DNA of 64,000 nt from Eubacteriales bacterium (GTDB lineage: Bacteria > Bacillota > Clostridia > Oscillospirales > CAG-272): the NCBI GenBank assembly GCA_045542075.1, contig JAZQKI010000023.1:18727-82726 (forward strand), written 5' to 3'. The position numbers and the translations under genes are program-made. How positions within the stretch are numbered: position 1 is the stretch's first letter; the number at the start of each line of letters is the position of its first letter. Shown piece after piece: positions 7,078-56,753 of this stretch. The notes beneath the pieces are model-generated. The model made no database searches. It saw nothing but the letters and a program-made list of their open reading frames with translations, and had not been told where the DNA came from.

Positions 7078-7186
7078 AAATACCTCCATGTTTTTGTTTT
7101 TCGTTTTTCAAAAAACATTATTTTTTTCAAGTCATCTCTAAAATAGGGACAGTTAGCCCACTTTGAGAGATTTTACCTTATTTACA

Positions 7187-7342: not shown

Positions 7343-9331
7343 TTATCTTTTACGTTTTGCTTGACTTGATCTGGCTTTATTTTCGCGGTTTTTATCTCTC
7401 GCCTGAGCTTGTCCGCGCGCGCTTGCGGAGGCTGTGCGCCTGTTTTCGTCACGGTTGCCTCCCCGATTTTTTCCCGTCGACGGCTTTGATGTGCGGCGAT
7501 CGCGCAAGGGGGCGTCAGTTCCCCTTCCTTTTTCCTCGGGTCGGACCAGACAATCCTTTCCGTAACCGATGAGGTCCTCCCTGCCCGCGCGTCTCAGCGC
7601 CTCGCGCACAAGGGCGGCGTTCTGAGGGCGGTTATACTGCAAAAGCGCTCTCTGAAGCTGCTTTTCGTGGTAGTCGGAGGCAACGTAAACAGGCTTCATA
7701 TCGAGCGGGTTTATTCCCGTATAATACATGACCGTCGATGCCGTGCCCGGTGTGGGGTAGTAGTCCTGGACCTGCTCGGGCGCATAGTTGTCCCGCTTAA
7801 GACACACGGCAAGGTTTACCGCGTCCTGAAGGGTAGATCCGGGGTGGCTGGACATAAGATAAGGCACCAGATACTGCTCCTTACCCACATTTTTGCTCAG
7901 CTCAAAATATTTTTTGCGGAAGCCCTGATATACCTCAAAATCCGGCTTTCCCATACAGCGGAGAACAGGGCTTGAGCAATGCTCGGGAGCCACCTTGAGC
8001 TGTCCCGAAACGTTGTCGCGAACAAGCTTTTTGAAAAATTCGTCGCTCTTGTCGTACATCAGATAATCAAAGCGTATTCCCGAGCGTATAAACACCTTTT
8101 TTACCTTAGGCAGCTTCTCTATTTCTTCAATAAGTTTTATGTATTCCGTGTGATCCACCTTCAGATTTTTGCAGGGTGTCGGCGCAAGGCATTTTCTGCT
8201 CGGGCATACTCCGTCCTTAAGCTGCTTGTCGCAGGACGGATATCGGAAATTCGCCGTAGGACCGCCAACGTCATGTATATATCCCTTAAACGTAGGCATC
8301 TGCGTTATGAGCTTTGCCTCGTTGACGCAGGACTCAATACTGCGCGAACGCACCGTCCTTCCCTGATGGAACGCCAGGGCGCAGAAATTACAAGCGCCAA
8401 AGCACCCTCTGTTATGAGTTATCGAGAACTGCACCTCCTCGATCGCGGGAACTCCGCCATCCTTTTCATACATAGGATGATACGTCCTTGCATAGGGCAG
8501 ACTGTAAACGTGGTCAAGCTCCTCCCTTTCAAGCGGTGGCATCGGGGGATTCTGCACAAGCATCTTACGGTCATAGATCTCGCAAATTGCTTGTCCGTTA
8601 ATGGAATCCTGGTTTTTATATTGCATGCCAAAGGCGCGGGCATATTCCCGCTTGTCTTCCTTTAATATATTGTAATCAAACGTCGCCGCAACAGGGAAAT
8701 TGACCTTATCCTCGGGCGAGCAGAGGTAGACTGTACCCCGTACGTCGCGTATTTTCTTGACAGGAACCCCCTTGTCAAGCAGCTCGGCTATGCGGATCAG
8801 TATGTTTTCTCCCATTCCGTACGTCAGAATATCTGCGCGGCTGTCGACGAGCACAGAACGGCGCACCTTATCATCCCAATAATCATAGTGCGCAAAGCGA
8901 CGTAAAGACGCCTCAAGTCCGCCAAGAATTATCGGCACGTCACCGTATGCCTCGCGTATTCTGTTTGAATATACTATCACGGCTCGGTCGGGACGCTTCC
9001 CCGCTCTGCCGCCGGGGGAATAATAGTCGTTATTTCTTTTTCTTTTGGCAGCGGTGTAATGCGCAACCATGGAATCTATATTTCCCGCGCTCACAAGAAA
9101 GCCCAGACGGGGCCTTCCAAACCTCTTGAAGTCCTCACAGGACCTGTAGTCGGGCTGAGAGAGCATAGCCACACGAAAGCCTTTATCCTCAAGGACTCTC
9201 GTGATTATCGCCGCACCAAAGGTGGGGTGGTCAACATACGCGTCTCCGCTTACGTAAACAAAGTCGGGCGCGTCCCAGCCGCGCTCTCTCATCTCCTCTG
9301 CGCTTACGGGAAGAAATCTGTTATCCTTCAT
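7343..9331 (-). CDS. YgiQ/UPF0313-family radical SAM protein
   Basis: GDAYVDHPTFG, HNRGCFGACNFCAL, DVGGPTAN, LKVAPEH, SSHPGST. Basic C-terminal tail. Confidence 0.95.
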   Translation of the reverse strand: MKDNRFLPVSAEEMRERGWDAPDFVYVSGDAYVDHPTFGAAIITRVLEDKGFRVAMLSQPDYRSCEDFKRFGRPRLGFLVSAGNIDSMVAHYTAAKRKRNNDYYSPGGRAGKRPDRAVIVYSNRIREAYGDVPIILGGLEASLRRFAHYDYWDDKVRRSVLVDSRADILTYGMGENILIRIAELLDKGVPVKKIRDVRGTVYLCSPEDKVNFPVAATFDYNILKEDKREYARAFGMQYKNQDSINGQAICEIYDRKMLVQNPPMPPLEREELDHVYSLPYARTYHPMYEKDGGVPAIEEVQFSITHNRGCFGACNFCALAFHQGRTVRSRSIESCVNEAKLITQMPTFKGYIHDVGGPTANFRYPSCDKQLKDGVCPSRKCLAPTPCKNLKVDHTEYIKLIEEIEKLPKVKKVFIRSGIRFDYLMYDKSDEFFKKLVRDNVSGQLKVAPEHCSSPVLRCMGKPDFEVYQGFRKKYFELSKNVGKEQYLVPYLMSSHPGSTLQDAVNLAVCLKRDNYAPEQVQDYYPTPGTASTVMYYTGINPLDMKPVYVASDYHEKQLQRALLQYNRPQNAALVREALRRAGREDLIGYGKDCLVRPEEKGRGTDAPLRDRRTSKPSTGKNRGGNRDENRRTASASARGQAQARDKNRENKARSSQAKRKR

Positions 9332-33613: not shown

Positions 33614-34441
33614 CTATACAAACCTCTGTGCGTAGCCGCATCTGCGACAAAGCTCCTCGGTGGCAACTCCGCGGCTAAAGCCGCATACCATAGCCTTGGC
33701 GCGCTCGGAGTTAAGAATATCATTTATATCGTCAGTGAATATGTTGCCGAGATTTATCACGCCGTCGCTGTCAAGACAGCACGGCACTATAGTTCCGTCG
33801 GCGAGAATGCCGAATTGGTCGCGGAGCCCGTAGCAAAAGAACTTATTTCCCTTTACATCCGCCTGACTGTCGGGCCACTCAAAGCGTTCTCCCCATTCAA
33901 GAAATATCTTGTTTTTTATTCTGATGCCGCGCGTGTTCTCTGCCCACTCGCCGTCTATATTTTGGCGGAGCAGAGTCATCGCCATCTCATTTCTGCCACC
34001 GTCAAAGCCTTTGTTCCACAAGCGGAAAACAACTATTACTCCCATCTTCGCAGCAGCCTTTGCAAAGTCGCAAAGTCCATTTACATAAGCCTCGTAGCTC
34101 TCGTCCGTGCCGTCCTCAAAGCTGTGCAAGGAGATGTTGACCTTGTGCAGCCACGCGCTCAAAAGCTCAGCTCCGCGTCTGCCGAGAAGCGTGCCGTTTG
34201 TGGTGATAATGGACTTATATCCGCGATCCCCCGCCATCTTTATGAACTCGGGCAGCTGCGGATGAGTCAGCGGCTCGCCCATCAGGTGATAATATATGTA
34301 TTTAGTCTTGTCCGTCAGCTTGTCGAGAATTTGCGAGAACTCGTCCGCGCTCATTCTCCGCCCATCCCGCTTGTGCCCGTGACAAAAGGAGCAGCTCATA
34401 TTGCAAATATTAGTTATCTCTACGTAGACCTTGCTGTACAT
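33614..34441 (-). CDS. Radical SAM protein with SPASM/twitch-type C-terminus
   Basis: CNMSCSFC, GEPL.HP, C..L....GILADG..VPCC.D...CRRC. Confidence 0.9.
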   Translation of the reverse strand: MYSKVYVEITNICNMSCSFCHGHKRDGRRMSADEFSQILDKLTDKTKYIYYHLMGEPLTHPQLPEFIKMAGDRGYKSIITTNGTLLGRRGAELLSAWLHKVNISLHSFEDGTDESYEAYVNGLCDFAKAAAKMGVIVVFRLWNKGFDGGRNEMAMTLLRQNIDGEWAENTRGIRIKNKIFLEWGERFEWPDSQADVKGNKFFCYGLRDQFGILADGTIVPCCLDSDGVINLGNIFTDDINDILNSERAKAMVCGFSRGVATEELCRRCGYAQRFV

Positions 34442-34517
34442 AATTGCTCCTTTCACGAAAGATTTTTATGAAATAGCCTCGCAGCTGTGCGAGGCTACTT
34501 TATGAGGATTTTGGGTA

Positions 34518-41667: not shown

Positions 41668-41703
41668 ACAGCAACCCACTCCGATTTCGGAGTGGGGTGC
41701 TGT
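41668..41703. terminator. Hairpin between convergent GH2 and giant protein genes
   Basis: ACAGCA.CCCACTCCGA-TT-TCGGAGTGGG.TGCTGT. Confidence 0.75.
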
Positions 41704-41738: not shown

Positions 41739-44700
41739 TTATTCTGTAAAGGTTATAGAGTAATCAAAGCTTCCGTCAGCTCCCACGGGAACAAACGCAA
41801 ATCTTACGTCATACTCGTCAGCCGAATAGCCGAGAGCTGTCGCAAGCTGCTCTACCTCGCTCTTGCTGAACACCTTTGCTCTGAGCGTATCATGCTCTGT
41901 GACGGTAACGTTATCAAGAATGATCTCGTCATTTCCGTCCTCGCCGGGTGTATGGAGGATAAGGCTTACGTAATACATAAACTCGACGTCATTATTTACG
42001 TAATAGCCAACGACGTAATTCTCTCCGTTGCCGTAATCGTCCGAGAAATCCTCGAAAATTATGTCGCCATTCGCGCCGTTCGCGTTCTCAAGACCGCATT
42101 CGCTGCAGCAGTATCCTTCGCCGTCACTATTGCCATACCAATAATGTCCGTGCGCAGAGTAAGTGCCTTGATACAAGGTCATTTCACAGAAGTCACAATA
42201 CTCGTAATACGATCCATTCTGAGTGCAGGTGGGATACTTGGTCGTGTTGATGTGCGAGCCTACGTGATTTTCCTCGGTCTTCGTGCTGCTTTCACCGCTG
42301 CTGTGCTTGTAATTCGTGGTTTTGGTGCAACCGCCCGAGAATTTATACGTGTAATCGTACCTGTACCACGTTCCGTCGGAGTGGTTTATGCTGTACTCAT
42401 ATATCTTAAATCTGTAATCCTTATAATACGTATATGCGTATTCACGTCCGCTGTTTTCTCCGTCGGAGTTTCTGTAGGTCTCGACCATCTTATATCCCTC
42501 AGAGCCGAAGCTTGCCGTATAAGTGCTGCGAGTATAAAGATTTTCGTACCAGGATTCGCTTCCGTCGGCGTTGATATATTTGACGTACTCTCTGGAATTA
42601 TAGCGATTTCCGTTGTAACTTGAATACTCGTATATCTCGTTTCTGTACTTGCGTCTTCCGTCCTCAAGCTTATTGATCGCGATTATCTCACTCTTTGCGG
42701 TATATCCATCAGCGTCGTAATAATCTATGGAGCTGTAGCTGCTGCCACAGTCGGAGCAATAATACTCGGTACCCCAGGCTGTGTCTTCCTCTATATTGGT
42801 GACCGTGTAATTGTGATAAGCTGCGCTTCCCGTCTTATAGGTAATCTCATATGCACACTTACCCGTCTCCTCGTTATAGCCAAACTGCCATGTCACGTAT
42901 CTGTCCGCACGGCATTCTCCCGGAACAGCAAGCCAGTATATAGCAGTTCTTATCTTGTATGCGCACTGCTCGGGGTCAGTCACCGCGCAGGTGTAGACAG
43001 TGGCGGTGTAACCAAAGTAATTTGTGCCCGACGCGGTATATTGGTTTTCATTTATATAACCGTCGATCCACATATCGCACCAATTGGAATCAAACTCACA
43101 AAGCACGTCGTCGTGTATATCGACCGATTTGTTCTCTCCGCAAACACAGCTGTAATGATAAGCATATCCGCCGCATACGCTGCCGTACTTGGACAGATCT
43201 ATGGTTTCAACCAGGAGCGAGGTGTGCCAGCTGTACTGCTGCTCGTAGGAATGTCCGCAGTCGCGACAGGTGTACGTGATTATAACTCCGTCATCGCAGG
43301 ACTTTGCTCCGTCCACAAGCTTGCCAGTCGCCTTATAGTCGTGCGCCTCCCATGATTTATGGCTCTCAATGGGCTCAAGAGCACCGCCGTTTGCCGATAC
43401 GACGTAGGTTGAATACTGTGTTGTCGTACAGGTCTTGGAATCTCTTTCCTCATAGTAGGAGTGCTGAATTCTGAGCCCGCACTTATCACAGGACGCCACA
43501 GAAACGTGAACGAGTCTTCCGTAATCGTCGAAATATTCGTTGTCCGTATATTTGCATGAGCACATACCGTACATATCGTAATATACGTTCTGCTCATATC
43601 CGCAAGGACATGAATACTTCTCAATATATCCGCCGCAGGCTCCGATGTCCTCAAGATTGTGATATTCTACTAAGAAGGTATTGTGCCAGTTCATTTCCTC
43701 GTTGTAGGAATATCCGCAATCACGGCATGTATACGTCACAGTATAGCCGTCCTCACAGGATTTGCCGTGCATATCAAAGTCGTACTTGTAGTTATGCTCC
43801 TTGTCAGTGGAGTAAACGTACTCATAGTCCTCTATAAGCACTGTATCGCCAACCTTTACAGTGTAGCTTCTGTAGCGGATAACGTCGCATCCCTCCTTGA
43901 CGGAATAGCTTTCGCGTATCATCCTGAATTCACACTTATTGCAGGTAAATGTTCTTATTTCATGCTCGATGCCGTTTTCGTCGGTAATATACTCCGTTGT
44001 ATAGGAGTAATCACACTTCATGCTGTCATCAAAGCTCTTGTTCTTGCCGCAGGCACATTCTTCAATACGAACGTATCCGCCGCAAGCGCCATACTCGGAA
44101 AGCTCAAATCTGTACTTTTCATACAGGTAGTGGTCATACTCCTCATATTCCTTTGAATATCCGCAGTCGCGGCATGTATACGTGACGAGATATCCCTCCT
44201 CGCAGGACTTTCCGTACAGCATGAAGGAATAGCTGTAGTTGTGATCTTCCCATTCGCTGTACTTATGCTTATAGTTGGAAATTACGGTCTGATCACCGAC
44301 CTTTATCGTGTAGACGTAATATCTGACCTCGAGGCATCCCTCCTTAACTGTGTAGGAATCGCTGGTCATAACAAGACCGCAGTCCTCACAGGTCATAGTT
44401 CTGATGCTGTGCCAGATTCCGTTTGCGTCCTCAACATCCTCATAGGTCGATGTATAATTGCAATCTATATCGTATTGGAAGGATTGTCTCTGTCCACAAG
44501 GGCAGTTATATATTTCTACGTAGCCGCCGCATGCACCGAAAGCTGAAAGATCATATTTTTCTTTGAGATAAGTCTCATGCCAGCTTCTCTCCTCATCGTA
44601 GGAGTGTCCGCAGTCCTTACATACGGCGTGAACTGTATATCCGTCCTCACAAGACTTGCCGTTCATATCATAGGTGAACGAATAATTATGGCTTTGCTGC

Positions 44701-47700
44701 GAACGGAAGATAACGTTATCCTCGAATATTACTGTCTCTCCGTTTACGGAAACTCTTATATTTCCGTAAAGGTATTCCATACAACCGGTCCTTGTATTGT
44801 AGTTGTCGGTTTCAATCTTTATTCCGCAGATTGAGCATGTGAATGTCTGTACTGTGTGCTCTATTCCGTTGCCGTCGGTATAATAGGTTGTTGTTTGCTC
44901 CTGTTTACAATCCAGGCTTCTCTCAATATAGCCTTCCTTGCCACAGGGACACTTATATATGCGGATACGTCCGCCGCACACGTCGTATTCGGAAAGGTCA
45001 TATTCCTTAATGAGAACTTCCTTGTGGTCATATCCTTCGTAGCTGCTGTTTTCACCGCATTCACGGCAGGTCATGTAAACGGTATAGCCCTCCGAACAGT
45101 CGGTTCCCTTAAGCTCGAATGAATACTCATAATCATGAGACATCCACCAGCTGTTGCGTAATTTGAGTCCGGATATGACCGTCTTGCCGTTCATTGTCGC
45201 ACTGACTATCTCGCAATTATATCTGTAGCAGCCGTCCTTTTCGGTGTAGCGGTCTCTTGTAAGCTCGAATCCACATTCTCTGCATACGCCCTTTTCGACA
45301 GAGTGAGCAATTCCGTTCTCATCTGTGTATCCATAGGAGGAATCACCGTACTCAAAATCACATGCGTATTCGAAGCTCGTATGATTCTGCTCGCCACAAG
45401 GACAAACATACACCTCGATATGTCCGCCGCACGCACCGAAATCAGAGAAATTATAGGATTCCACCATGTACGTTTCATGCCAATATATTTCTCTCTCATA
45501 AGAGTATCCGCATGTCTCACATACCGCACTGACGGTATATCCGTCCTCGCAGGATTCACCGAAAAGCTTAAATGAATACTCATATTTGTGGTTATCTCTG
45601 GTTCCGTTGAATTCCTGGAAGCTATCGACTATAACGCGCTCGCCAATGCTTACTGTCCAGATAACGTATTCCTTATCAACACATCCCTCTGTAACGTAAT
45701 AGAGGTCGCGGATCCTTTCAAGACCGCACTTTTCACAGGTCATGGTCTCCACTCTATGTACTATGCCGTTTTCGTCCGTGTATTCACGCTCGCCGTCATA
45801 GATGTGTCCGTCACAGGTATCTCCATACTCAAATCGAGTTTCCTGTCCGCATGCGCAAGAATACAGCTTGATGTATCCGCCGCATCCGCCGAACTCCGCA
45901 AGATCGTAATTGCCTATGCAGAAGCGTCCGTGTCCGTGGCCTTCGCTCTTGCTCTCGTATCCGCAATCAGCACAAATGCCATAAGCCGTAAATCCATCGT
46001 CACAGGTCTCTCCTTCGAGAGTAAAGGTGTAGTTGTAATTGTGGTTGTCGTAAATTTCGGGAACACACTCAAGATTATTTATTATTACGTTGTCGCCTAC
46101 GGATATATTGTAGATGACGTGTCTGTACTCATAGCAGCCCTCTATTACGGTGTAGCGGTCGCTTTCCACAGCAAGTCCGCATTCCATGCAGAAGCTCTTT
46201 GATACCTCGTGACGGGTTCCGTTCTCATCAATATATGGGATTGAGGGAGACGACGCAAGACCGCCTTCAATATTGAGGCTCACTCCGCTTATCTCGCCAC
46301 AGGGGCAGGTATATACTTCAATATATCCGTCGCATCCGCCATAATCCGAAAGATTATACTTTTTTGTAGTTATTCTCTCGTGATAGTTTTCGGTATAGGA
46401 CTGACTGCTGCCGCAAACTGTACACGTACGCGTGATACGAACGCCGTCCAGACAGCTCTCTCCCTCAAGCTCATACTCATACTCGTACTCGTGGTTGGAG
46501 GATCTGTAGCTATCCATATATTCGAATACTCGCTCGCCGTCCTTTTCAATATAAGCAAGCTCATACTCTATCTCGTAGCAGCCGTCTTTCTCGTACCATT
46601 CCTCGCTCACGAACACAAGTCCGCACTTTGAGCAGACTCCGCGTTCGCCCTCGTGAATGTTTCCGTTCTCGTCAGTTTCCTCAAAGTCCTCGTATTCAAT
46701 AGAGCACTCCATATCAAGGTCGTTGATATAGGTGAACTTTCCGCAGTCCTCACACTTGCTACCGTAAATAACTATGTCACCGCAATCTGTGCTTGCGACA
46801 GTATGTGTACCGTAGGTATCGTTGTGATATTCCTCTTTCTCTATCCATATTACGTTATCAAGGAACACCTCACCGTTTACGCTCATTACAAATTCATACG
46901 TAGCGGTCAGCATGCAATCCGCAATAACCGCCTCGGCGTATATATCCTCCGTAAATCCGCAAACGGTACAGTACGCGGATGCCGACATATACATATTGCC
47001 GTCCTCGGTGACACCCTCATCGCCCTCTCCGAACTCAAGCTTACAGCTGCCTGCCGATTCCGCGTTATCTACGTCAAGATACTTATACTCGCCGCAGGCA
47101 CAGGTGTTAAGTGTAATCGTTCCGCCGCACGCGCCGTACTCCGAAATGTCGACTGTTATCGTCGCGTCGGTCTTGGAATGGTCGCAGTCGCCCGAAAAAT
47201 GTCCGCAGCCTGTGCATACGCCGTTCTCATATGTATGCGCCGTGGTGGGAATCACCTGTGTCTTTACGTAATTACATACAGAACACGTAGCTCTGCTCTC
47301 ACCCGTCTCAGAACAGGTTGCAGCCTTTATGATCTCTGCCGTTCCAAGGGTGTGAGCCTGAGTCTCGACCTTTTCCTGACATACCGTACAGATATGCCAG
47401 TGAGAAGTCTCATTCGACTCCCAGCCTGCCGAGCAGGTATGGTCTGCCTTAGGTATTACCTGCGTGAGTGTATCATTATAAACAGCTCCGCTATATACTG
47501 CCTGCGCGGTATAGGTCATAAGTCCTGTTTCCATGCAGGTCGCGTCCTTCTTCACAGAAGTCACGCTTGCTTCTATTTCAACTGTATGGGCCGAATCATG
47601 CTTACATACAAAGACAACCTTCGCGCTCTTATAGTCATCGCTCCATACCCATTCGGACGTATATTTATGTCCGTGCGCGGGTACCATGCGGTCGTTATAC

Positions 47701-49997
47701 TCGTTTCCGCACATAGAGCACTTGTGCGCTGTATATCCGTTGGTATCGCAGGTCGCGGGAACAACTGTGTCCACGTATGTGTGCTTTATCTGCGCCTTTG
47801 TCTGCTTGTATTCCTCGCCGCAATTACCGCAAACGTGCTTAATGTAGCCCGCTGTTGTACACGAAGGCTCTACTGTTTCGGCTACCGCCCAATTATGACC
47901 TGTTGCAGCGATAGTGGTCTTATAGGAATATCCGCAGTTACATGTATATGTGATCTTTCCTGCAACCGTACATGTAGCGGGAGTTTCAACAGATGTATAG
48001 CTATGTCCTGTAGCCTTGACTATATTTTTCTTTTCGGTCATTGCGCAGCGGATACATACCTCAAGGGTATATCCGTCCTTTATACAGGTAGCGTCTACTA
48101 CGGTAGTACGTATATTGTGTCCGTAAAGCTGACATCTCTCCTCGGGCTTGAGTCTTGTAACAGAGTAGTACGAGAAGTGATCTGTCTGGAAGGTAACGTA
48201 GCCGTTGCTGTATGCCGCCTCAATGCATACGGGCTGTCCCTCGCTGATGTACCAGATAGCAACGCTGTCTACGTCATCACCCTCGGGTACACTGTAAGGA
48301 AGGGTTATTGTTATATATCCACCGTTGAAGGACGTGATATTCTGTGTTCCGTCGTTCATGGTGAAGTTGTAAATAGGATTGTTTCCAAGCTGCTCAAGCT
48401 GTCCCGCATCAAGCAGATTCTTTGCCGCATCAAGCTCCGCACCCGTAAGAGTTCCCGCGGAGAGCGTGAGATCCTTGTTAGCTATCGCTCCAAGCGTGGT
48501 GGAGTCAAGCGCCATAGACGCTCCCTTAAGATCAACTCCGCCTGCCTCTGCAAGATCGGACGCGTTGACCTTTGCGGATTCCTCGGTAGAGGCATCTATT
48601 GCCGTCTTGGTTTCATTACAACCCTTGTTTGTACATTTATAAGTTCTTATATTGCCAGAAAGAGTGCCCTCGTCCCAGATATGAGCGTTGGTATTCTTTT
48701 TTATAGTCTCTGTTATCTTATGTCCGCAAGCAGAACACGTGAGGGTCTTTACACCGTCAGTAACGCATGTAGCCTCGGTAGTTACCTTTGCTATGTAGTC
48801 GTGATTGGAGATCTTGTCTCCCTCAACTTCCTCTCCGCAAACGGTACACTTGTATATCTGAACGAAATCGCAGGTGGTTCCCTCAACAGGTCTTTCTGTG
48901 GGGGTAACTCCTTCTATGCTGTGTCCAAGCTCACTTCCTACCGTATCGGTATAGGAGTCACCGCAGCCTGTACAGGTATATGTGTCTATCTGCGGGGATG
49001 TGCAGGTCGCCTCGTCGGATCCCGAGAACTCGTAATTGTGCTTGAGCGCAGGCTCCGTCGCGTCACAGTTTGCGCAGGTGCGATCCTGCTTACAGGTCGG
49101 ATCGGTCCAGCTATGTCCAGCCGCATCGGTCTCACTGTCGTTATACGTATCGCCGCAGACACTACAGGTATGGCTTGTATATCCCTTTTCGGTACATGTG
49201 GAATCCACTACCGTATCCTTGTAATCATGTCCAAGCGCCTCACCCTCGGTCGCGGAGCAGACCGAGCAGGTCTTGGGAGATGTACAGGTAGCGTCCACCC
49301 AGGCGTGATCGGCTACGTCACCGCGTGTTTCTCCGCAAGAAGAACAGGTTGAGAGCTGTGAGCAGGTAGCGTCTGTCCAGCTATGTTCTGCAAGCTCGCC
49401 GTATTCCTCGCCGCAATTCTCACATTTTGCCTTTGACTCACAGGTAGCACTGCCGCCCTTGTGTCCAAGCGCCTTGCCCTCGGTCGCGGAGCAGACCGAG
49501 CAGGTCTTGGGAGACGTACAGGTAGCATCTGTCCAGCTATGTCCTGCAGGCTCGCCGTATTTCTCGCCGCATATTTCACATTCCGCACCAGACTCGCAGG
49601 TAGCACTGCCACCCTTGTGTCCCAGTGCCTCGCCATCAGTCGCTGAGCAGACCGAGCAGGTCTTGGGAGACGTACAGGTAGCATCTACCCAAGTGTGCGC
49701 CAATATATCGCCGTATTCAGCGCTACATCTGTCGCACTTTGCCTTGGATGTGCAGGTCGCCTCTCCGCCGCTGTGTCCGAGCGCGGATATTTTTTCTTCC
49801 TTTGTCTCGCCACAAAGCGAGCAGACTGCTTCCTTTGTTCCCTCGGCGGTACAGGTGGCGTCAGTCTTGACGCTCCACTCTCCCCACGAGTGTACGCAGT
49901 CCTCATTTTTGTTGTTGCATGACGAGATGCAGATAACACATATCAGCATCACGAGAATACATAAAACGCCTGTTAAAACTCGTTTTTTGGTATTCAT
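41739..49997 (-). CDS. Giant Cys/His-rich repeat lipoprotein (2752 aa)
   Basis: CAGGAGG RBS, lipobox ISSC, dozens of H...ATC...CxxCG modules, an FQTDHFSYYSV domain and seven ~150-aa repeats. Confidence 0.9.
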   Translation of the reverse strand: MNTKKRVLTGVLCILVMLICVICISSCNNKNEDCVHSWGEWSVKTDATCTAEGTKEAVCSLCGETKEEKISALGHSGGEATCTSKAKCDRCSAEYGDILAHTWVDATCTSPKTCSVCSATDGEALGHKGGSATCESGAECEICGEKYGEPAGHSWTDATCTSPKTCSVCSATEGKALGHKGGSATCESKAKCENCGEEYGELAEHSWTDATCSQLSTCSSCGETRGDVADHAWVDATCTSPKTCSVCSATEGEALGHDYKDTVVDSTCTEKGYTSHTCSVCGDTYNDSETDAAGHSWTDPTCKQDRTCANCDATEPALKHNYEFSGSDEATCTSPQIDTYTCTGCGDSYTDTVGSELGHSIEGVTPTERPVEGTTCDFVQIYKCTVCGEEVEGDKISNHDYIAKVTTEATCVTDGVKTLTCSACGHKITETIKKNTNAHIWDEGTLSGNIRTYKCTNKGCNETKTAIDASTEESAKVNASDLAEAGGVDLKGASMALDSTTLGAIANKDLTLSAGTLTGAELDAAKNLLDAGQLEQLGNNPIYNFTMNDGTQNITSFNGGYITITLPYSVPEGDDVDSVAIWYISEGQPVCIEAAYSNGYVTFQTDHFSYYSVTRLKPEERCQLYGHNIRTTVVDATCIKDGYTLEVCIRCAMTEKKNIVKATGHSYTSVETPATCTVAGKITYTCNCGYSYKTTIAATGHNWAVAETVEPSCTTAGYIKHVCGNCGEEYKQTKAQIKHTYVDTVVPATCDTNGYTAHKCSMCGNEYNDRMVPAHGHKYTSEWVWSDDYKSAKVVFVCKHDSAHTVEIEASVTSVKKDATCMETGLMTYTAQAVYSGAVYNDTLTQVIPKADHTCSAGWESNETSHWHICTVCQEKVETQAHTLGTAEIIKAATCSETGESRATCSVCNYVKTQVIPTTAHTYENGVCTGCGHFSGDCDHSKTDATITVDISEYGACGGTITLNTCACGEYKYLDVDNAESAGSCKLEFGEGDEGVTEDGNMYMSASAYCTVCGFTEDIYAEAVIADCMLTATYEFVMSVNGEVFLDNVIWIEKEEYHNDTYGTHTVASTDCGDIVIYGSKCEDCGKFTYINDLDMECSIEYEDFEETDENGNIHEGERGVCSKCGLVFVSEEWYEKDGCYEIEYELAYIEKDGERVFEYMDSYRSSNHEYEYEYELEGESCLDGVRITRTCTVCGSSQSYTENYHERITTKKYNLSDYGGCDGYIEVYTCPCGEISGVSLNIEGGLASSPSIPYIDENGTRHEVSKSFCMECGLAVESDRYTVIEGCYEYRHVIYNISVGDNVIINNLECVPEIYDNHNYNYTFTLEGETCDDGFTAYGICADCGYESKSEGHGHGRFCIGNYDLAEFGGCGGYIKLYSCACGQETRFEYGDTCDGHIYDGEREYTDENGIVHRVETMTCEKCGLERIRDLYYVTEGCVDKEYVIWTVSIGERVIVDSFQEFNGTRDNHKYEYSFKLFGESCEDGYTVSAVCETCGYSYEREIYWHETYMVESYNFSDFGACGGHIEVYVCPCGEQNHTSFEYACDFEYGDSSYGYTDENGIAHSVEKGVCRECGFELTRDRYTEKDGCYRYNCEIVSATMNGKTVISGLKLRNSWWMSHDYEYSFELKGTDCSEGYTVYMTCRECGENSSYEGYDHKEVLIKEYDLSEYDVCGGRIRIYKCPCGKEGYIERSLDCKQEQTTTYYTDGNGIEHTVQTFTCSICGIKIETDNYNTRTGCMEYLYGNIRVSVNGETVIFEDNVIFRSQQSHNYSFTYDMNGKSCEDGYTVHAVCKDCGHSYDEERSWHETYLKEKYDLSAFGACGGYVEIYNCPCGQRQSFQYDIDCNYTSTYEDVEDANGIWHSIRTMTCEDCGLVMTSDSYTVKEGCLEVRYYVYTIKVGDQTVISNYKHKYSEWEDHNYSYSFMLYGKSCEEGYLVTYTCRDCGYSKEYEEYDHYLYEKYRFELSEYGACGGYVRIEECACGKNKSFDDSMKCDYSYTTEYITDENGIEHEIRTFTCNKCEFRMIRESYSVKEGCDVIRYRSYTVKVGDTVLIEDYEYVYSTDKEHNYKYDFDMHGKSCEDGYTVTYTCRDCGYSYNEEMNWHNTFLVEYHNLEDIGACGGYIEKYSCPCGYEQNVYYDMYGMCSCKYTDNEYFDDYGRLVHVSVASCDKCGLRIQHSYYEERDSKTCTTTQYSTYVVSANGGALEPIESHKSWEAHDYKATGKLVDGAKSCDDGVIITYTCRDCGHSYEQQYSWHTSLLVETIDLSKYGSVCGGYAYHYSCVCGENKSVDIHDDVLCEFDSNWCDMWIDGYINENQYTASGTNYFGYTATVYTCAVTDPEQCAYKIRTAIYWLAVPGECRADRYVTWQFGYNEETGKCAYEITYKTGSAAYHNYTVTNIEEDTAWGTEYYCSDCGSSYSSIDYYDADGYTAKSEIIAINKLEDGRRKYRNEIYEYSSYNGNRYNSREYVKYINADGSESWYENLYTRSTYTASFGSEGYKMVETYRNSDGENSGREYAYTYYKDYRFKIYEYSINHSDGTWYRYDYTYKFSGGCTKTTNYKHSSGESSTKTEENHVGSHINTTKYPTCTQNGSYYEYCDFCEMTLYQGTYSAHGHYWYGNSDGEGYCCSECGLENANGANGDIIFEDFSDDYGNGENYVVGYYVNNDVEFMYYVSLILHTPGEDGNDEIILDNVTVTEHDTLRAKVFSKSEVEQLATALGYSADEYDVRFAFVPVGADGSFDYSITFTE
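49228..49690 (-). repeat. DNA-level intragenic repeats (three copies of the DATCTSPKTCSVCSAT unit)
   Basis: GAGCAGACCGAGCAGGTCTTGGGAGA(T/C)GTACAGGTAGC recurs near 49255, 49489 and 49645. Confidence 0.85.
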
Positions 49998-50055: not shown

Positions 50056-50113
50056 AATATACACTAAAGTGTATATTCGTATACATTGTATCACAATCTA
50101 GCATAAAAATCAA
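50056..50113 (-). promoter_or_regulatory. Promoter of the giant gene with an operator-like palindrome
   Basis: Minus strand TTGATT-17-TACAAT (50085-50113) and AATATACACT-AA-AGTGTATATT at 50056-50077. Confidence 0.6.
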
Positions 50114-52868: not shown

Positions 52869-53147
52869 TTTCTACCCTCCCTTTCTTTTTGTCATCTTAA
52901 TTATATCATTTTGTTTGGGTGAAATCAACGTTTTTTCCGATATTTGCGATCCTTTTGACGCGATTTTTACATATTAAGCAAAAATTTTAGGCGTTTTCAC
53001 ATTGTTTTTTCTCAAAATCTATTTACATTTGAGGTGTTTTGTGATATCATTATAATGTATGATTATGCTCGGGCAGAATGTCCTGTCCACAGCATATCTA
53101 CAATTATCGGTTAAAATATTTTTTATAAATTCAGGAGGACAAAACCA

Positions 53148-56100
53148 ATGGCTATCCAAAGAAAAAAGCTTTCTATGGACGGTAACCAGGCTGCAGCTCA
53201 CGCGAGCTATGCGTTTACCGAAGTAGCAGGCATTTATCCGATCACTCCCTCCAGCCCTATGGCTGACTTCACCGACCAGTGGGCAGCTGCAGGACAGAAG
53301 AACGTGTTCGGAACAACCGTTAACGTAGTAGAGATGGAATCCGAAGCCGGTGCCGCAGGTACCGTTCACGGCTCTCTCGCATCCGGCGCTCTCACAACAA
53401 CCTACACAGCGTCCCAGGGTCTTCTTCTCATGATCCCCAACATGTACAAGATCGCAGGTGAGCTTCTCCCCGGCGTATTCCATGTTTCGGCTCGTGCAGT
53501 TGCTTCCCACGCTCTTAACATTTTCGGAGACCACTCCGACATTTACGCTTGCCGTCAGACAGGCTTTGCTATGCTCGCAGAGACCAACCCCCAGGAGGTT
53601 ATGGACCTTGCGGCTGTAGCACACCTTTCCGCTATCAAGGGCCGTGTTCCCTTCCTTAACTTCTTCGACGGCTTCCGTACCTCTCATGAGATTCAGAAGA
53701 TCGAGGTATGGGACTATGCTGACCTTGAGGAAATGCTTGACAAGGATGCGGTTGCCGCATTCCGCGCTCACGCTCTCAACCCCAACAAGCCCGCTCTCCG
53801 CGGAACCGCGCAGAACGGCGATATATTCTTCCAGAACAGAGAGGCTTGTAACAAGTATTACAATGCTCTTCCCGCTGTTGTTGAGGAGTATATGAACAAG
53901 GTAAACGAGAAGATCGGTACAAACTACCAGCTCTTCAATTACTACGGTGCTCCCGATGCAGAGAGAGTTATTGTTGCTATGGGCTCTATCTGCGACGTTA
54001 TCGAGGAGGTCATCGACTATATGAACGCAGCAGGCGAGAAGGTCGGTCTTGTTAAGGTTCGTCTTTACAGACCCTTCTGCGCAGAAAAGCTCGCAGAGGC
54101 TATTCCCGCAAGCTGTAAGAAGCTCGCAGTTCTTGACAGAACCAAGGAGCCCGGCTCTCTCGGTGAGCCTCTCTATCTTGACGTTGTTACAGCTCTCTCC
54201 AGAGTTGGCAGAACAGATATCAAGGTAGTTGGCGGACGCTACGGTCTCGGCTCGAAGGATACTCCTCCTTCTTCCGTATTCGCAATTTACGACAACCTCG
54301 CAAAGGATGCTCCCAAGGGCAACTTCACCGTAGGTATCGTAGACGACGTTACAGGTCTCTCCCTTGAGGAAAAGCCCGCTCCCGACACAGCTCCCGCAGG
54401 AACTATCGCTTGTAAGTTCTGGGGTCTCGGCGGTGACGGTACAGTTGGCGCAAACAAGAACTCCATCAAGATCATCGGTGACCACACCGATAAGTTCATT
54501 CAGGCTTACTTCCAGTACGACTCCAAGAAGACCGGCGGTATCACAATTTCTCACCTCCGCTTCGGAGATAAGCCTATCAAGTCTCCCTACTATATCAACA
54601 AGGCTGACTTCGTAGCTTGTCACAACCAGGCGTACCTCAAGAAGTATGATATGGTTTCCGACGTTAAGCCCGGCGGAACCTTCCTTCTCGACTGCCAGTG
54701 GACAACTCTCGAGGAGCTTGATAAGAACCTCCCCGCAGCAGTTAAGAAGTACCTCGCTGAAAACAACGTAAACTTCTACACCATCGACGCTACCAGCCTT
54801 GCTATCAAGCAGATCGGTAACGCAAAGGTAAAGAATACCATCCTTCAGTCTGCGTTCTTCGCTCTCGCAAAGATCCTTCCCGCAGAGGAAGCTATCGAGT
54901 ACATGAAGAAGATGGCATACAAGTCCTATATTAAGAAGGGACAGGCTATGGTTGATCTCAACTATGCCGCTATCGACGCGGGCGCTGACGCGTTCGTTAA
55001 GGTAGACGTTCCCGCTGAGTGGGCAAATTGCGTAGATAACACAGAGGCAGTTCTCGTAACAGGCGAGCGCGCAGATCTCGTTGACTTCGTAAACGACGTG
55101 GTTAACCCCACAAACGCTATGAAGGGTGACAGCCTCCCCGTTTCCGCATTTGAAAAGTACGTTGACGGTCAGTTCCCCCAGGGCTCCGCAGCTTACGAGA
55201 AGCGCGGTGTTGCAGTTATGGTTCCCGAGTGGATCCCCGAAAACTGTATCCAGTGTAACAGCTGTTCCTTTGTATGTCCTCACGCAACCATCCGTCCTTA
55301 CGCTATGAACGAGGAAGAGGTTGCAAACGCTCCCGAGGCTACAAAGTTCGCAGCTAAGCCCATTATAAAGACAAATTACAAGTTCACAATGGCAGTATCT
55401 CCCCTTGACTGTATGGGTTGTACCCTCTGCGTTAAGGCTTGTCCCGTCAACCAGGGTGTTGATAAGAAGGCAGCCGAGGCAGGCGTTAAGGCAGATCCTT
55501 CCAAGTATGCGCTTAAGATGATGCCCCAGGCAACTCAGAGCGAGCAGCAGGCTGCATTCGACTATGCGGTTGCAAGCGTTTCCGAGAAGCCCGAGATCAT
55601 CAACAACACCGTTAAGGGCTCTCAGTTCAAGCAGCCCCTGCTTGAATTCTCCGGCTCCTGCGCAGGCTGTGCTGAAACCTCCTACGCAAGACTCGTAACA
55701 CAGCTCTTCGGTGAGAGAATGTATATCTCCAACGCAACCGGATGTTCTTCCATCTGGGGTGGCTCCGCTCCCTCCACACCTTACACGGTAAACAAGGAAA
55801 GCGGCAAGGGTCCCGCTTGGGCTAACTCCCTCTTTGAGGACAACGCTGAGCACGGTCTCGGTATGTATCTCGGTCAGAAGGCTATAAGAAACAGACTTAT
55901 CGGCTACGTCAAGTCCCTTGACTACTCCGACTGCCCCGAGTGCAAGGCTCTCCTTGACAACTACCTCGACACTCTCGAGGACGGCGCGGCTAACGAGAAG
56001 GCAACAAAGGCTATGGTAGAAATGCTCGAAAAGGTTGTTGTTGAATATCCCGATGACTGCGAGATCGAAAAGAAGATCCTCGCTGAAAAGAACTACCTCA

Positions 56101-56753
56101 ACAAGAAGTCCATGTGGATCTTCGGTGGAGACGGTTGGGCATACGATATCGGCTTCGGCGGTCTTGACCACGTGCTTGCAAGCGGCGAGAACGTAAACAT
56201 CTTCGTATTTGATACAGAGGTTTACTCCAACACCGGTGGACAGGCATCCAAGGCTTCCAATATCGGTCAGGTTGCTCAGTTCGCAGCTGCAGGTAAGGCT
56301 ATCGGCAAGAAGAATCTCGCTGAGATCGCTATGTCCTACGGTTACGTTTACGTTGCTCAGGTATCTATGGGCTATGACAAGAACCAGCTCCTCAAGGCTC
56401 TTACAGAGGCTGAGGCATACAACGGTCCTTCGCTTATTATCGGTTACGCTCCCTGTGAGATGCACGGTATCGCTAAGGGCGGTATGCAGAACTGCCAGAT
56501 CGAGATGAAGAAGGCAGTTGAGGCAGGTTACTGGCAGACATTCAGATACAATCCTACCCTTGAATCCAACAAGCTTACAATAGACTCCAAGGAGCCTACG
56601 GCAAGCTACGTTGACTTCATCAAGAACGAGACTCGTTACGCTCGTCTTGCACAGTCTAACCCCGAAAGAGCAGCTGCTCTCTTCGCTAAGGCTGAGGCTA
56701 ACGCAAAGGCTAAGTACGAGAGACTCCAGAAGATGGGTAAGTTGTATGAATAA
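53148..56753 (+). CDS. nifJ: Pyruvate:ferredoxin (flavodoxin) oxidoreductase
   Basis: YPITPSS, GLGGDGTVGANK, CIQCN.C..VCP, CMGC.LC..ACP, FSGSCAGC.ET, GGDGWAYDIG. Confidence 0.98.
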   Translation: MAIQRKKLSMDGNQAAAHASYAFTEVAGIYPITPSSPMADFTDQWAAAGQKNVFGTTVNVVEMESEAGAAGTVHGSLASGALTTTYTASQGLLLMIPNMYKIAGELLPGVFHVSARAVASHALNIFGDHSDIYACRQTGFAMLAETNPQEVMDLAAVAHLSAIKGRVPFLNFFDGFRTSHEIQKIEVWDYADLEEMLDKDAVAAFRAHALNPNKPALRGTAQNGDIFFQNREACNKYYNALPAVVEEYMNKVNEKIGTNYQLFNYYGAPDAERVIVAMGSICDVIEEVIDYMNAAGEKVGLVKVRLYRPFCAEKLAEAIPASCKKLAVLDRTKEPGSLGEPLYLDVVTALSRVGRTDIKVVGGRYGLGSKDTPPSSVFAIYDNLAKDAPKGNFTVGIVDDVTGLSLEEKPAPDTAPAGTIACKFWGLGGDGTVGANKNSIKIIGDHTDKFIQAYFQYDSKKTGGITISHLRFGDKPIKSPYYINKADFVACHNQAYLKKYDMVSDVKPGGTFLLDCQWTTLEELDKNLPAAVKKYLAENNVNFYTIDATSLAIKQIGNAKVKNTILQSAFFALAKILPAEEAIEYMKKMAYKSYIKKGQAMVDLNYAAIDAGADAFVKVDVPAEWANCVDNTEAVLVTGERADLVDFVNDVVNPTNAMKGDSLPVSAFEKYVDGQFPQGSAAYEKRGVAVMVPEWIPENCIQCNSCSFVCPHATIRPYAMNEEEVANAPEATKFAAKPIIKTNYKFTMAVSPLDCMGCTLCVKACPVNQGVDKKAAEAGVKADPSKYALKMMPQATQSEQQAAFDYAVASVSEKPEIINNTVKGSQFKQPLLEFSGSCAGCAETSYARLVTQLFGERMYISNATGCSSIWGGSAPSTPYTVNKESGKGPAWANSLFEDNAEHGLGMYLGQKAIRNRLIGYVKSLDYSDCPECKALLDNYLDTLEDGAANEKATKAMVEMLEKVVVEYPDDCEIEKKILAEKNYLNKKSMWIFGGDGWAYDIGFGGLDHVLASGENVNIFVFDTEVYSNTGGQASKASNIGQVAQFAAAGKAIGKKNLAEIAMSYGYVYVAQVSMGYDKNQLLKALTEAEAYNGPSLIIGYAPCEMHGIAKGGMQNCQIEMKKAVEAGYWQTFRYNPTLESNKLTIDSKEPTASYVDFIKNETRYARLAQSNPERAAALFAKAEANAKAKYERLQKMGKLYE

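Follow-up and report, generated by a model that had tools for sequence, protein, structure and literature searches.

A tandem 150-residue Cys/His repeat as a putative metal-linked stalk in a giant surface lipoprotein of an anaerobic gut Clostridia bacterium

Introduction

In aerobes, exported proteins gain their stability from disulfides; how long surface fibres are stabilised in strict anaerobes without Dsb enzymes has, to our knowledge, been little studied. This question is raised by a locus in the genome of a Eubacteriales bacterium (Clostridia; Oscillospirales; CAG-272), where one gene encodes a giant lipoprotein of 2,752 aa containing seven tandem copies of a Cys- and His-rich repeat of ~150 aa. 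The gene lies at 41739..49997 (open reading frame (ORF) list and translation) of a 64,000-nucleotide stretch of DNA (assembly GCA_045542075.1, contig JAZQKI010000023.1, positions 18,727 to 82,726), hereafter referred to as the window. Coordinates are those of the window, and the giant gene and all features described for it are on the minus strand.

A model reading of the DNA letters without database searches, here called the sequence-only reading, had noticed the repeat without recognising it, and had proposed a beta-rich fibre in which about three tetrahedral metal sites per repeat take the place of disulfides. What kind of structure does this repeat build, and what holds it together? We lean towards the interpretation that the seven units, together with three degenerate ones, form a rigid, metal-linked stalk of a lipid-anchored surface protein of this strictly anaerobic gut bacterium. 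Metal binding, the identity of the metal, the composition of the sites, the rigidity, and the role as a stalk are what we infer, each from the observations given below.

Results

Seven tandem 150-aa units in a giant lipoprotein

With the unit starts set by the motif H-x-[YF]-x-[YF], seven tandem units of 149-153 aa each were delimited in aa 1169-2220 (43338-46493), in agreement with the seven repeats placed at 43344-46493 by the sequence-only reading. These are unit 1 (aa 1169-1318, 46044..46493), unit 2 (aa 1319-1469, 45591..46043), unit 3 (aa 1470-1620, 45138..45590), unit 4 (aa 1621-1769, 44691..45137), unit 5 (aa 1770-1918, 44244..44690), which was used for the structure model, unit 6 (aa 1919-2067, 43797..44243), and unit 7 (aa 2068-2220, 43338..43796). 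A profile of the repeat scored all seven units at E 8.7e-57 to 5.7e-66 (2.7e-59, 4.1e-59, 1.2e-61, 1.3e-59, 5.7e-66, 3.4e-60, and 8.7e-57 for units 1 to 7, respectively), values well outside what chance would give. The partial copies that had been noted on both sides of the array were also detected by the profile, as two degenerate units on the N-terminal side (aa 926-1050 and 1072-1161, 46494..47222, E 1.8e-10 and 4.2e-11, respectively), which were recovered again when the host genome was searched, and one on the C-terminal side (aa 2219-2312, 43062..43337, E 5.7e-17), which matches profile positions 1-89 and contains only modules A and B of the three modules described below.

The pairwise identity among the seven units is 31-48%, and Tandem Repeats Finder did not detect them in the DNA because they are too diverged, reporting only a repeat of period 156 in the N-terminal part of the gene. 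In the alignment of the seven units (alignment A1), 20 columns are invariant, including H1, C14, C24, C27, H38, C54, C63, C65, C103, C106, and C121, and the consensus derived earlier agrees with it. The repeat alignment contains no conserved stretch of 7-10 columns, and a search for related loci with a single unit as the query found no relative. Each unit contains 10-11 Cys, 3-8 His, 13-22 Tyr, and 13-20 Glu. The high Tyr and Glu content described earlier is borne out by the composition of the repeat region (6.9% Cys, 11.2% Tyr, 11.1% Glu, net charge -99), and the whole protein is similarly composed (6.5% Cys, 8.8% Tyr, 9.6% Glu).

The protein shares with multi-haem cytochromes c a Cys-rich, repetitive sequence, export, and an origin in anaerobes. 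However, as the sequence-only reading had stated, it has no CxxCH motif (0 in 2,752 aa), for which reason haem binding was rejected, and no cytochrome family was matched.

The array was bridged by one contig from an independent public run, which covers 42112-49274 with 104 differences and 8 gaps, indicating that the repeat array is not an assembly artefact.

The N-terminus of the protein consists of MNTKKR, a hydrophobic stretch, and the sequence I-S-S-C27 (signal peptide and lipobox, aa 1-27, 49917..49997), in line with the lipobox consensus [LVI][ASTVI][GAS]C. The host genome encodes the lipoprotein-processing enzymes Lgt (PF01790, two matches above the cut-off) and LspA, or signal peptidase II (PF01252, one match above the cut-off), and a lipobox-type Cys with a signal peptide is also found at the start of four homologues from the same genus. 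With both a lipobox and Lgt plus LspA present, the giant protein appears to be an exported, lipid-anchored lipoprotein.

The 150-aa unit has no clear match to a described family or fold

Pfam, searched at E<=1, gave only a sub-threshold and spurious Hepsin-SRCR match for the giant lipoprotein, and NCBIfam gave none. In profile searches against the Protein Data Bank (PDB), the best E values were 0.07-0.34 (the zinc ribbons of PHF8, RPA12, and RpoM), none of them significant, and the best value for the N-terminal array of mini-modules against PDB sequences was 0.11. The ESM Atlas returned only unnamed Bacillota clusters for the unit, and full-text searches of the literature found no description of the 150-aa repeat, a candidate article proving to be unrelated.

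The structure of unit 5 was predicted with AlphaFold2 from an alignment of 85 rows, consisting of units from the window and from 28 related loci. The model shows eleven strands and one short helix, with a mean predicted local distance difference test score (pLDDT) of 97.4 and a predicted template modelling (pTM) score of 0.85; the N-terminal half modelled alone gave a pLDDT of 95.4. This all-beta model, with the lipobox and with Lgt and LspA, is consistent with the earlier description of a beta-rich repeat in a lipoprotein. In Foldseek searches against the PDB, the whole unit reached a best E value of 0.088 and the N-terminal half one of 0.13 (template modelling scores of ~0.2-0.3), and the best E value against BFVD was 0.038. 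VIA-align against 48,161 chains reached a best Z of 6.0 for the whole unit, which covers only residues 76-148, a generic meander resembling levivirus coats, and 2.9 for the N-terminal half. The weak matches lean towards zinc ribbons (RPA12, E 0.22-0.34; NrdR, Z 2.3, residues 35-77; ZPR1, Z 2.1, residues 1-38).

Within the limits of the fold-search tools, the predicted structure of the 150-aa unit could be assigned to no known fold. The expectation that the repeat would not match a described family was likewise upheld, since the Pfam, NCBIfam, and PDB sequence and fold searches gave nothing clear.

Twelve putative ligand positions are retained in most units

The conservation of the Cys and His residues was evaluated in 897 full units. 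H1, C24, and C27 are each present in 100%, C14 in 99.9%, C63 in 99.6%, C105 in 99%, C54, C65, and C120 in 97% each, and C102 in 96%. H38 is present in 88%, with a Cys in its place in a further 35 units, C77 in 77%, and H95 in 55%. Among units without H38 (n = 147), Cys occupies this position in 50, and Cys or His is found one column on in 45%. Among those without C77 (n = 289), a Cys at another position between C65 and C102 is found in 216, mostly 1-3 columns from position 77. Unit 1 of the giant lipoprotein has no Cys at column 77. Twelve ligand positions, ten Cys and two His, are thus kept in at least ~94% of units, which suffices for three four-ligand sites. The knuckles are followed by Gly residues (G28 in 71%, G66 in 84%, and G106 in 80%). 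Of the ~10 Cys and 3 His per unit counted earlier, the ten Cys stand, whereas only two His, H1 and H38, behave as ligands.

The other frequent His, H95, occurs in 54-63% of units and covaries across the strand with Asp/Glu112, the strongest pair in the family, with His-Asp or His-Glu at columns 95/112 in 555 of 1,146 units. In unit 5, these columns correspond to aa ~1863 and ~1880 (~44356-44411), outside the Cys sites. The pair may represent a salt bridge on the surface or, alternatively, a fourth site at which metal is weakly bound.

Topology and covariation suggest sites shared between consecutive modules

On the basis of the model, the 150-aa unit can be described as three small beta modules, A (residues 1-37), B (residues 38-76), and C (residues 77-150), the last of which would be expanded into a five-stranded meander. 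In each module, the tip of a hairpin would present a knuckle (CxxC or CxC) with a His, or Cys77, as its neighbour, and a further Cys would lie at the far end, namely the loop Cys C14 in A and C54 in B, and the hairpin-tip Cys C120 in C.

To assign the ligands to sites, the strand map of the model was combined with a mean-field direct-coupling analysis, which drew on 1,611 distinct units (effective number, 1,517). The couplings form ladders between b1 and b2 (8-19, 6-21, 5-22, and 2-26), between b2 and b3 (18-35, 20-33, and 22-31), between b4 and b5 (43-62 and 44-60), and in the meander (101-108, 99-110, 114-125, and 131-136), which reproduce the hairpins of the AlphaFold2 model. In the strand map and the couplings, H1 lies beside the C24-C27 knuckle, whereas C14, in the b1-b2 loop, lies at the opposite end of the 7-residue hairpin from its own knuckle. 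C54 is likewise opposite C63-C65, and C120 is at a hairpin tip ~12 residues from C102-C105. Because C14, C54, and C120 are far from their own knuckles, the linear ligand groups proposed by the sequence-only reading, H-C-CxxC, H-C-CxC, and C-CxxC-C, are geometrically unlikely; topology and covariation instead place these three Cys next to the His and knuckle of the following module. The flank couplings 15-37, 14-36, 38-15, 13-67, and 38-67 put C14 with H38, C63, and C65, and 53-107, 53-132, 56-77, 55-76, and 79-100 put C54 with C77, C102, and C105. Between consecutive units (1,312 pairs), the best coupling outside the invariant columns is 117(n)-26(n+1), which links the C120 turn to the next knuckle.

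The far-end Cys of each module would then be donated to the site of the next module. Site I would consist of C120 of the previous unit, H1, C24, and C27; site II of C14, H38, C63, and C65; and site III of C54, C77, C102, and C105, with Zn(II) as the most likely occupant of all three. Each ion would tie two consecutive modules, and the ion in site I would tie two units.

Under this scheme, in which every site takes one Cys from the module before it, an array should open with an extra ligand and close with a module without a loop Cys. These features were sought in the N-terminal 900 aa of the giant lipoprotein, which contain ~20 short His-Cys3 mini-modules in two arrays (assigned from the module list, with the sequence for the first and the cap statistics for both). 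Array 1 (aa 34-460, 48618..49898) opens with a cap Cys two residues ahead of the first His (C34-V-H36) and ends with His439 and C455-x4-C460, without a loop Cys. It is followed by a Cys-poor middle segment, delimited by the Cys density per 100 aa (aa ~470-615, 48153..48590), which has no Pfam match and ends with a conserved HFSYY motif. Array 2, consisting of a cap Cys at aa 622 and irregular His-Cys3 modules (aa 622-925, 47223..48134), opens with C622-QLYG-H627. In homologous proteins, a Cys at position -2 of the first His was found in 77 of 106 lipobox proteins, compared with 165 of 3,509 internal modules. Of 323 array starts, 185 have a Cys no more than 6 aa ahead of the first His, compared with 23 of 1,325 internal modules. 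The HFSYY motif occurs 162 times in the family, and a C-x(1-6)-H cap comes after it in 155 of these cases. A self-contained H-C-CxxC site would need neither an opening cap nor a closing module without a loop Cys, and both features thus speak against it.

Several figures weigh against this assignment. The inter-unit coupling 117(n)-26(n+1) is modest (1.07, rank 54 of ~4,560 pairs). The couplings among the near-invariant Cys columns are all-with-all and uninformative, and an analysis of the co-loss of ligand columns gave no grouping into sites, as the columns are too conserved. In addition, the -2 position carries no Cys in 29 of the 106 lipobox proteins, and no Cys is nearby in 138 of the 323 array starts, which were crudely defined. 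A complex of unit 5, unit 6, and four Zn ions was also predicted, with a score of 0.00; this run was made without controls and gives no verdict. Taken together, the topology, the modest couplings, and the cap statistics suggest that the sites are interleaved, each taking one Cys from the preceding module.

Ligand replacements and Cys counts favour metal sites over disulfides

A disulfide-stapled extracellular repeat, in which the Cys residues form cystines, a common arrangement among Cys-rich repeats outside the cell, and no metal is bound, would agree with the export of the protein and with the exact count of 10 Cys, compatible with five disulfides, in 350 of 764 units (46%). However, the number of Cys in the match columns is odd in 306 of the 764 units, showing no bias towards even counts, and the modules carry three Cys and one His. 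The invariant H1 and the replacements of H38 by Cys are not explained by cystines. Metal sites are favoured over cystines by these Cys/His swaps, the invariant His, the Gly residues at the knuckles, and the odd Cys counts.

The enzymes of the host point in the same direction. No matches to DsbB, VKOR, DSBA, Thioredoxin_4, or, as a candidate route for reduction at the surface, DsbD_TM were found in the host genome (1.64 Mb, 48 contigs, 96.65% complete), whereas control genomes gave matches, and the pyruvate:ferredoxin oxidoreductase (PFOR) encoded in the window points to an anaerobic host. In passages of Daniels et al. (PMC2823432), an even number of Cys is described as favoured in the secreted proteins and lipoproteins of all groups except anaerobic Gram-positives. 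On the opposite side, a genome that is 96.65% complete can hide a gene, so that the absence of Dsb enzymes is not certain, and a 2025 article (PMC12453122) includes an account of working DsbA or VKOR homologues in some Clostridia. On this evidence, disulfides are unlikely to be what holds the repeat together. Each unit probably has three tetrahedral metal sites, with Zn as the probable metal, as suggested by the twelve ligands kept in at least ~94% of units, the odd Cys counts, and the missing Dsb genes. The earlier proposal of about three such sites per repeat in place of disulfides is favoured accordingly.

Iron is a further candidate for these sites, as rubredoxin-like Fe(Cys)4 or Fe(Cys)3His centres, in which case the chain would be a surface appendage with redox activity or electron conduction. 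In favour of iron are the likeness of CxxCG knuckles to those of rubredoxin, the supply of Fe(II) in anoxic gut contents, and a site III that would be all-Cys. However, two of the three sites would be Cys3His, the usual structural Zn set, and from strands of 7-15 residues the sites would lie ~20-45 Å apart, a distance over which electrons could not hop. CxxCH motifs are absent, and neither genes for cofactor loading nor conserved neighbours were found near the gene. We therefore regard iron centres as very unlikely. The Cys3His sets and export in an unfolded state would favour Zn over Fe, and the rubredoxin-like Fe considered earlier thus appears less likely than Zn for the Cys3His sites.

The mature protein contains 175 Cys and 51 C-x1-2-C knuckles, and thus ~50 putative sites per chain. 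Such a number would also suit a protein whose main role is metal storage or buffering, as a surface sponge for zinc or heavy metals without a mechanical role. However, the ligands are at structural positions of a confidently modelled domain, the number and identity of the units are kept position by position between species (see below), 24 loci share a separate, conserved C-terminal domain, and the gene is absent from most relatives. Storage as the main role is extremely unlikely on these grounds, and neither a metal store nor a redox-sensitive appendage, both of which had been suggested earlier, received specific support.

A conserved C-terminal domain follows the array

The degenerate C-terminal unit is followed by a Tyr-rich region (aa 2313-2589, 42231..43061), which contains YD-like short repeats and has no Pfam match. 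About five of these repeats lie at aa ~2430-2580 (42258-42710), ahead of the C-terminal domain. This domain of 163 aa (aa 2590-2752, 41742..42230), delimited by alignment with homologues, shows 50-62% identity to three homologues from the same genus (alignment A2) and 38-62% overall. It matches no Pfam family, and the ESM Atlas gave nothing at 0.9 or more. With the lipid anchor at the N-terminus, the distal tip of the chain would be formed by this domain, a candidate for the functional head.

One homologue is labelled 'RHS repeat protein' in its source. This label and the YD-like repeats at aa ~2430-2580 would fit a polymorphic toxin, an RHS-type effector, or an enzyme carrier, in which the repeats serve delivery. 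However, no RHS_repeat, toxin, or enzyme family was matched at E<=1, the YD-like stretch is only ~150 aa long, the C-terminal domain is conserved rather than polymorphic, and no immunity-like neighbour is conserved. The chance that the protein is of this kind is extremely slim.

The N-terminal arrays differ from the 150-aa units in their recent history. The DNA repeat of period 156 (49363-49738, 2.1 copies, 88% matches) is a duplication of two 26-aa mini-modules, suggesting that the N-terminal array has been duplicated recently and is still expanding, unlike the old 150-aa units.

The repeat family occurs almost entirely in giant proteins of gut Clostridia

In the host genome, a profile search found the 150-aa repeat in this one gene only. 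A word-indexed search with aa 1169-2220, in which only proteins of 1,513-4,816 aa were candidates, gave 247 proteins at E<=1e-3 with lengths of 1.7-4.7 thousand residues. They are unnamed or 'hypothetical', any taxonomic label is Clostridia or Clostridiales, and Pfam domains are absent from nearly all of them. An exhaustive profile search gave 513 cluster representatives at E<=1e-3, 406 at <=1e-10, and 292 at <=1e-30. The matched proteins are up to 7,583 aa long with up to 23 matched stretches each, and nearly all of the 513 clusters are giant 'hypothetical' proteins from metagenome-assembled genomes (MAGs) of gut Clostridia. The copy number in 221 fetched proteins ranges from 2 to 21. Some homologues carry Dockerin_1, BspA-type LRR_5, or SBP_bac_8 domains, and these additions would fit an extracellular scaffold with variable heads.

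The distribution among close relatives is patchy. In species-representative genomes, the repeat is present in four of the 24 other species of the same genus and in none of 200 other genomes of the order. Among 399 other genomes of the class, two weak matches in other families (E 3e-4 and 7e-4), with internal stop codons, were judged spurious. The gene is thus missing from 20 of the 24 species of the same genus, many of whose genomes are incomplete, and from the 200 other genomes of the order, suggesting that it is dispensable; this counts against the role proposed here. With the C-terminal domain as the query, 24 loci were found in MAGs from the gut of roe deer, yak, and goat, from human Hadza samples, and from other gut samples, and the DNA of the window occurs in animal gut metagenomes from five studies.

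Where the gene is present, the array is maintained unit by unit. Compared with the unit at the same position of a homologue from the same genus, the seven units show 45, 52, 46, 40, 54, 57, and 66% identity, whereas the off-diagonal values are 31-49%. The units are therefore position-specific orthologues, suggesting that the seven-unit array is old and stable and that each unit is individually maintained.

The short His-Cys3 mini-modules are more widespread in the host than the 150-aa unit. Besides the giant gene, 15 or more ORFs that start with a signal peptide or a lipobox hold 4-9 H..C..CxxC mini-modules each, for example those at C42:76011-79175 (-), C44:3563-8989 (+), C26:48969-55094 (+), and C48:67387-71979 (-) of the host contigs. 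The mini-module thus appears to be a general building block of the surface proteins of this host.

Transcription signals and neighbouring genes

The giant gene (P0001) is monocistronic in the ORF list. A promoter-like site found by a consensus scan, TTGATT-17-TACAAT with a TG ahead of the second hexamer, lies 5' of the start codon (50085..50113); it is a pattern match only, and such sites are equally numerous in shuffled sequence. A terminator-like hairpin of 9 pairs (7 G-C) with a T tail, also a pattern match only, is found directly 3' of the stop codon (41675..41696). The neighbouring genes encode a GH2 glycosidase, a transglutaminase-like protein, and PFOR, and are housekeeping or unrelated genes. 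No neighbour in the window was common to more than two of 28 related loci, suggesting that the giant gene stands alone.

Two long stop-free ORFs, at 46653-49352 (+) (899 aa) and 53019-56465 (-) (1,148 aa), are antisense to the giant gene and the PFOR gene, respectively. They were rejected as genes and regarded as shadow frames, since their translations are nonsense-like and match no family. A second large lipoprotein is encoded at 2440-7089 (-). It has 1,549 aa and a lipobox L-T-G-C, followed by ~1,200 aa of Ala-rich, coiled-coil-like sequence, short Cys/His modules, and a C-terminal domain, and matches no Pfam family. The window also encodes a radical SAM/SPASM protein at 33614-34456 (-) and a large radical SAM protein (Radical_SAM_N and DUF3362) at 7343-9331 (-), for which no link to the giant gene was seen.

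Discussion

The arrangement of the predicted sites suggests how the units might form a stalk. Strands of 7-15 residues would leave little room for a hydrophobic core, and stability would be supplied by the ions, which would join the modules and also fix the joints between them. If the modules are chained head to tail, from the far end of A to the near end of B, from the far end of B to the knuckle end of C, and from the far end of C to the next A, they would form a straight rod. Such a daisy-chained, core-less beta rod with ~50 sites per chain would replace the disulfides that the host could not make. From the strand lengths at ~3.3 Å per residue, a unit would measure very roughly ~8-9 nm and the whole chain something on the order of 100 nm. 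Such a rod would hold the conserved C-terminal domain at a distance from the membrane. A more far-reaching proposal, which we put forward as tentative and rather doubtful, is that these proteins represent a new class of extracellular rod, in which core-less beta modules exist only through shared Zn(Cys3His)/Zn(Cys4) rivets, with ~50 ions in ~100 nm.

The closest likeness of the individual modules is to zinc ribbons and rubredoxin-type knuckles, such as the C-terminal ribbon of TFIIS/RPA12 and the N-terminal ribbon of NrdR. Common to both are CxxC(G) knuckles at beta-hairpin tips, ligand sets of the Cys3His or Cys4 type, and a mini-domain size that leaves no room for a hydrophobic core. However, no significant match to zinc ribbons was found by sequence, profile, or fold. 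The giant lipoprotein is predicted to be exported and lipid-anchored, whereas zinc ribbons are nucleic-acid-associated; and, whereas in zinc ribbons two beta hairpins of one domain each contribute a two-ligand knuckle to a single site, the repeat seems to have one knuckle per module and a fourth ligand that comes from the preceding module, together with arrays of dozens of modules, and a third module that is a 70-residue five-stranded meander.

At the level of the whole protein, the likeness is to giant adhesins, in which Ca2+-bound Ig-like repeats serve as metal-rigidified stalks. As in these, the metal in the giant lipoprotein would be at the joints between domains, but its ligands would be Cys and His, forming soft-metal sites, in place of the Asp/Glu Ca2+ sites of adhesin stalks. 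Stalk repeats of bacterial fibrillar adhesins are treated in part of the work of Monzon and Bateman (PMC9210967). Like fibrillar adhesins, the giant lipoprotein has tandem beta domains that separate a cell anchor from a conserved domain at the distal end, a giant size, and a patchy distribution, with seven full and three degenerate units and ~20 mini-modules as the putative stalk and a lipobox for the anchor. Unlike in fibrillar adhesins, the anchor is an N-terminal lipid, which would put any head at the C-terminus, and Pfam finds neither a stalk domain nor an adhesive domain in the protein.

Within the host, modules A and B of the 150-aa unit follow the grammar of the His-Cys3 mini-module, H ... 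C ... CxxC. The 150-aa unit differs from the mini-module in being a fixed triplet that evolves as one unit, in having a third module with a putative Cys4 site and a beta meander, and in having a profile of its own that matches only 513 clusters and a single gene in the host genome. Overall, the unit appears to resemble both a zinc-knuckle chain and a metal-stiffened adhesin stalk, and to be a member of no described family of either. New here are the recognition of the composite 150-aa unit as a separate family, the confidently modelled but unmatched fold of this unit, and the evidence for sites shared between modules.

To the question of how long surface fibres are stabilised in strict anaerobes, this repeat family suggests an answer, namely arrays of zinc-thiolate sites that are apparently built across module boundaries. 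It would offer a new stalk domain, without a family or a solved relative, for the catalogue that is used to find adhesins in gut metagenomes, and would make sense of the very common unnamed His-Cys3 mini-repeat in the surface proteins of Clostridia. The implied demand of ~50 zinc ions per surface protein would bear on the zinc economy of the gut and on oxygen sensitivity. If the rod with shared rivets is true, anaerobic Clostridia would use extracellular zinc thiolate chemistry as a substitute for disulfides, and the stalk would collapse on oxidation or metal starvation, making it an oxygen- and zinc-sensitive appendage.

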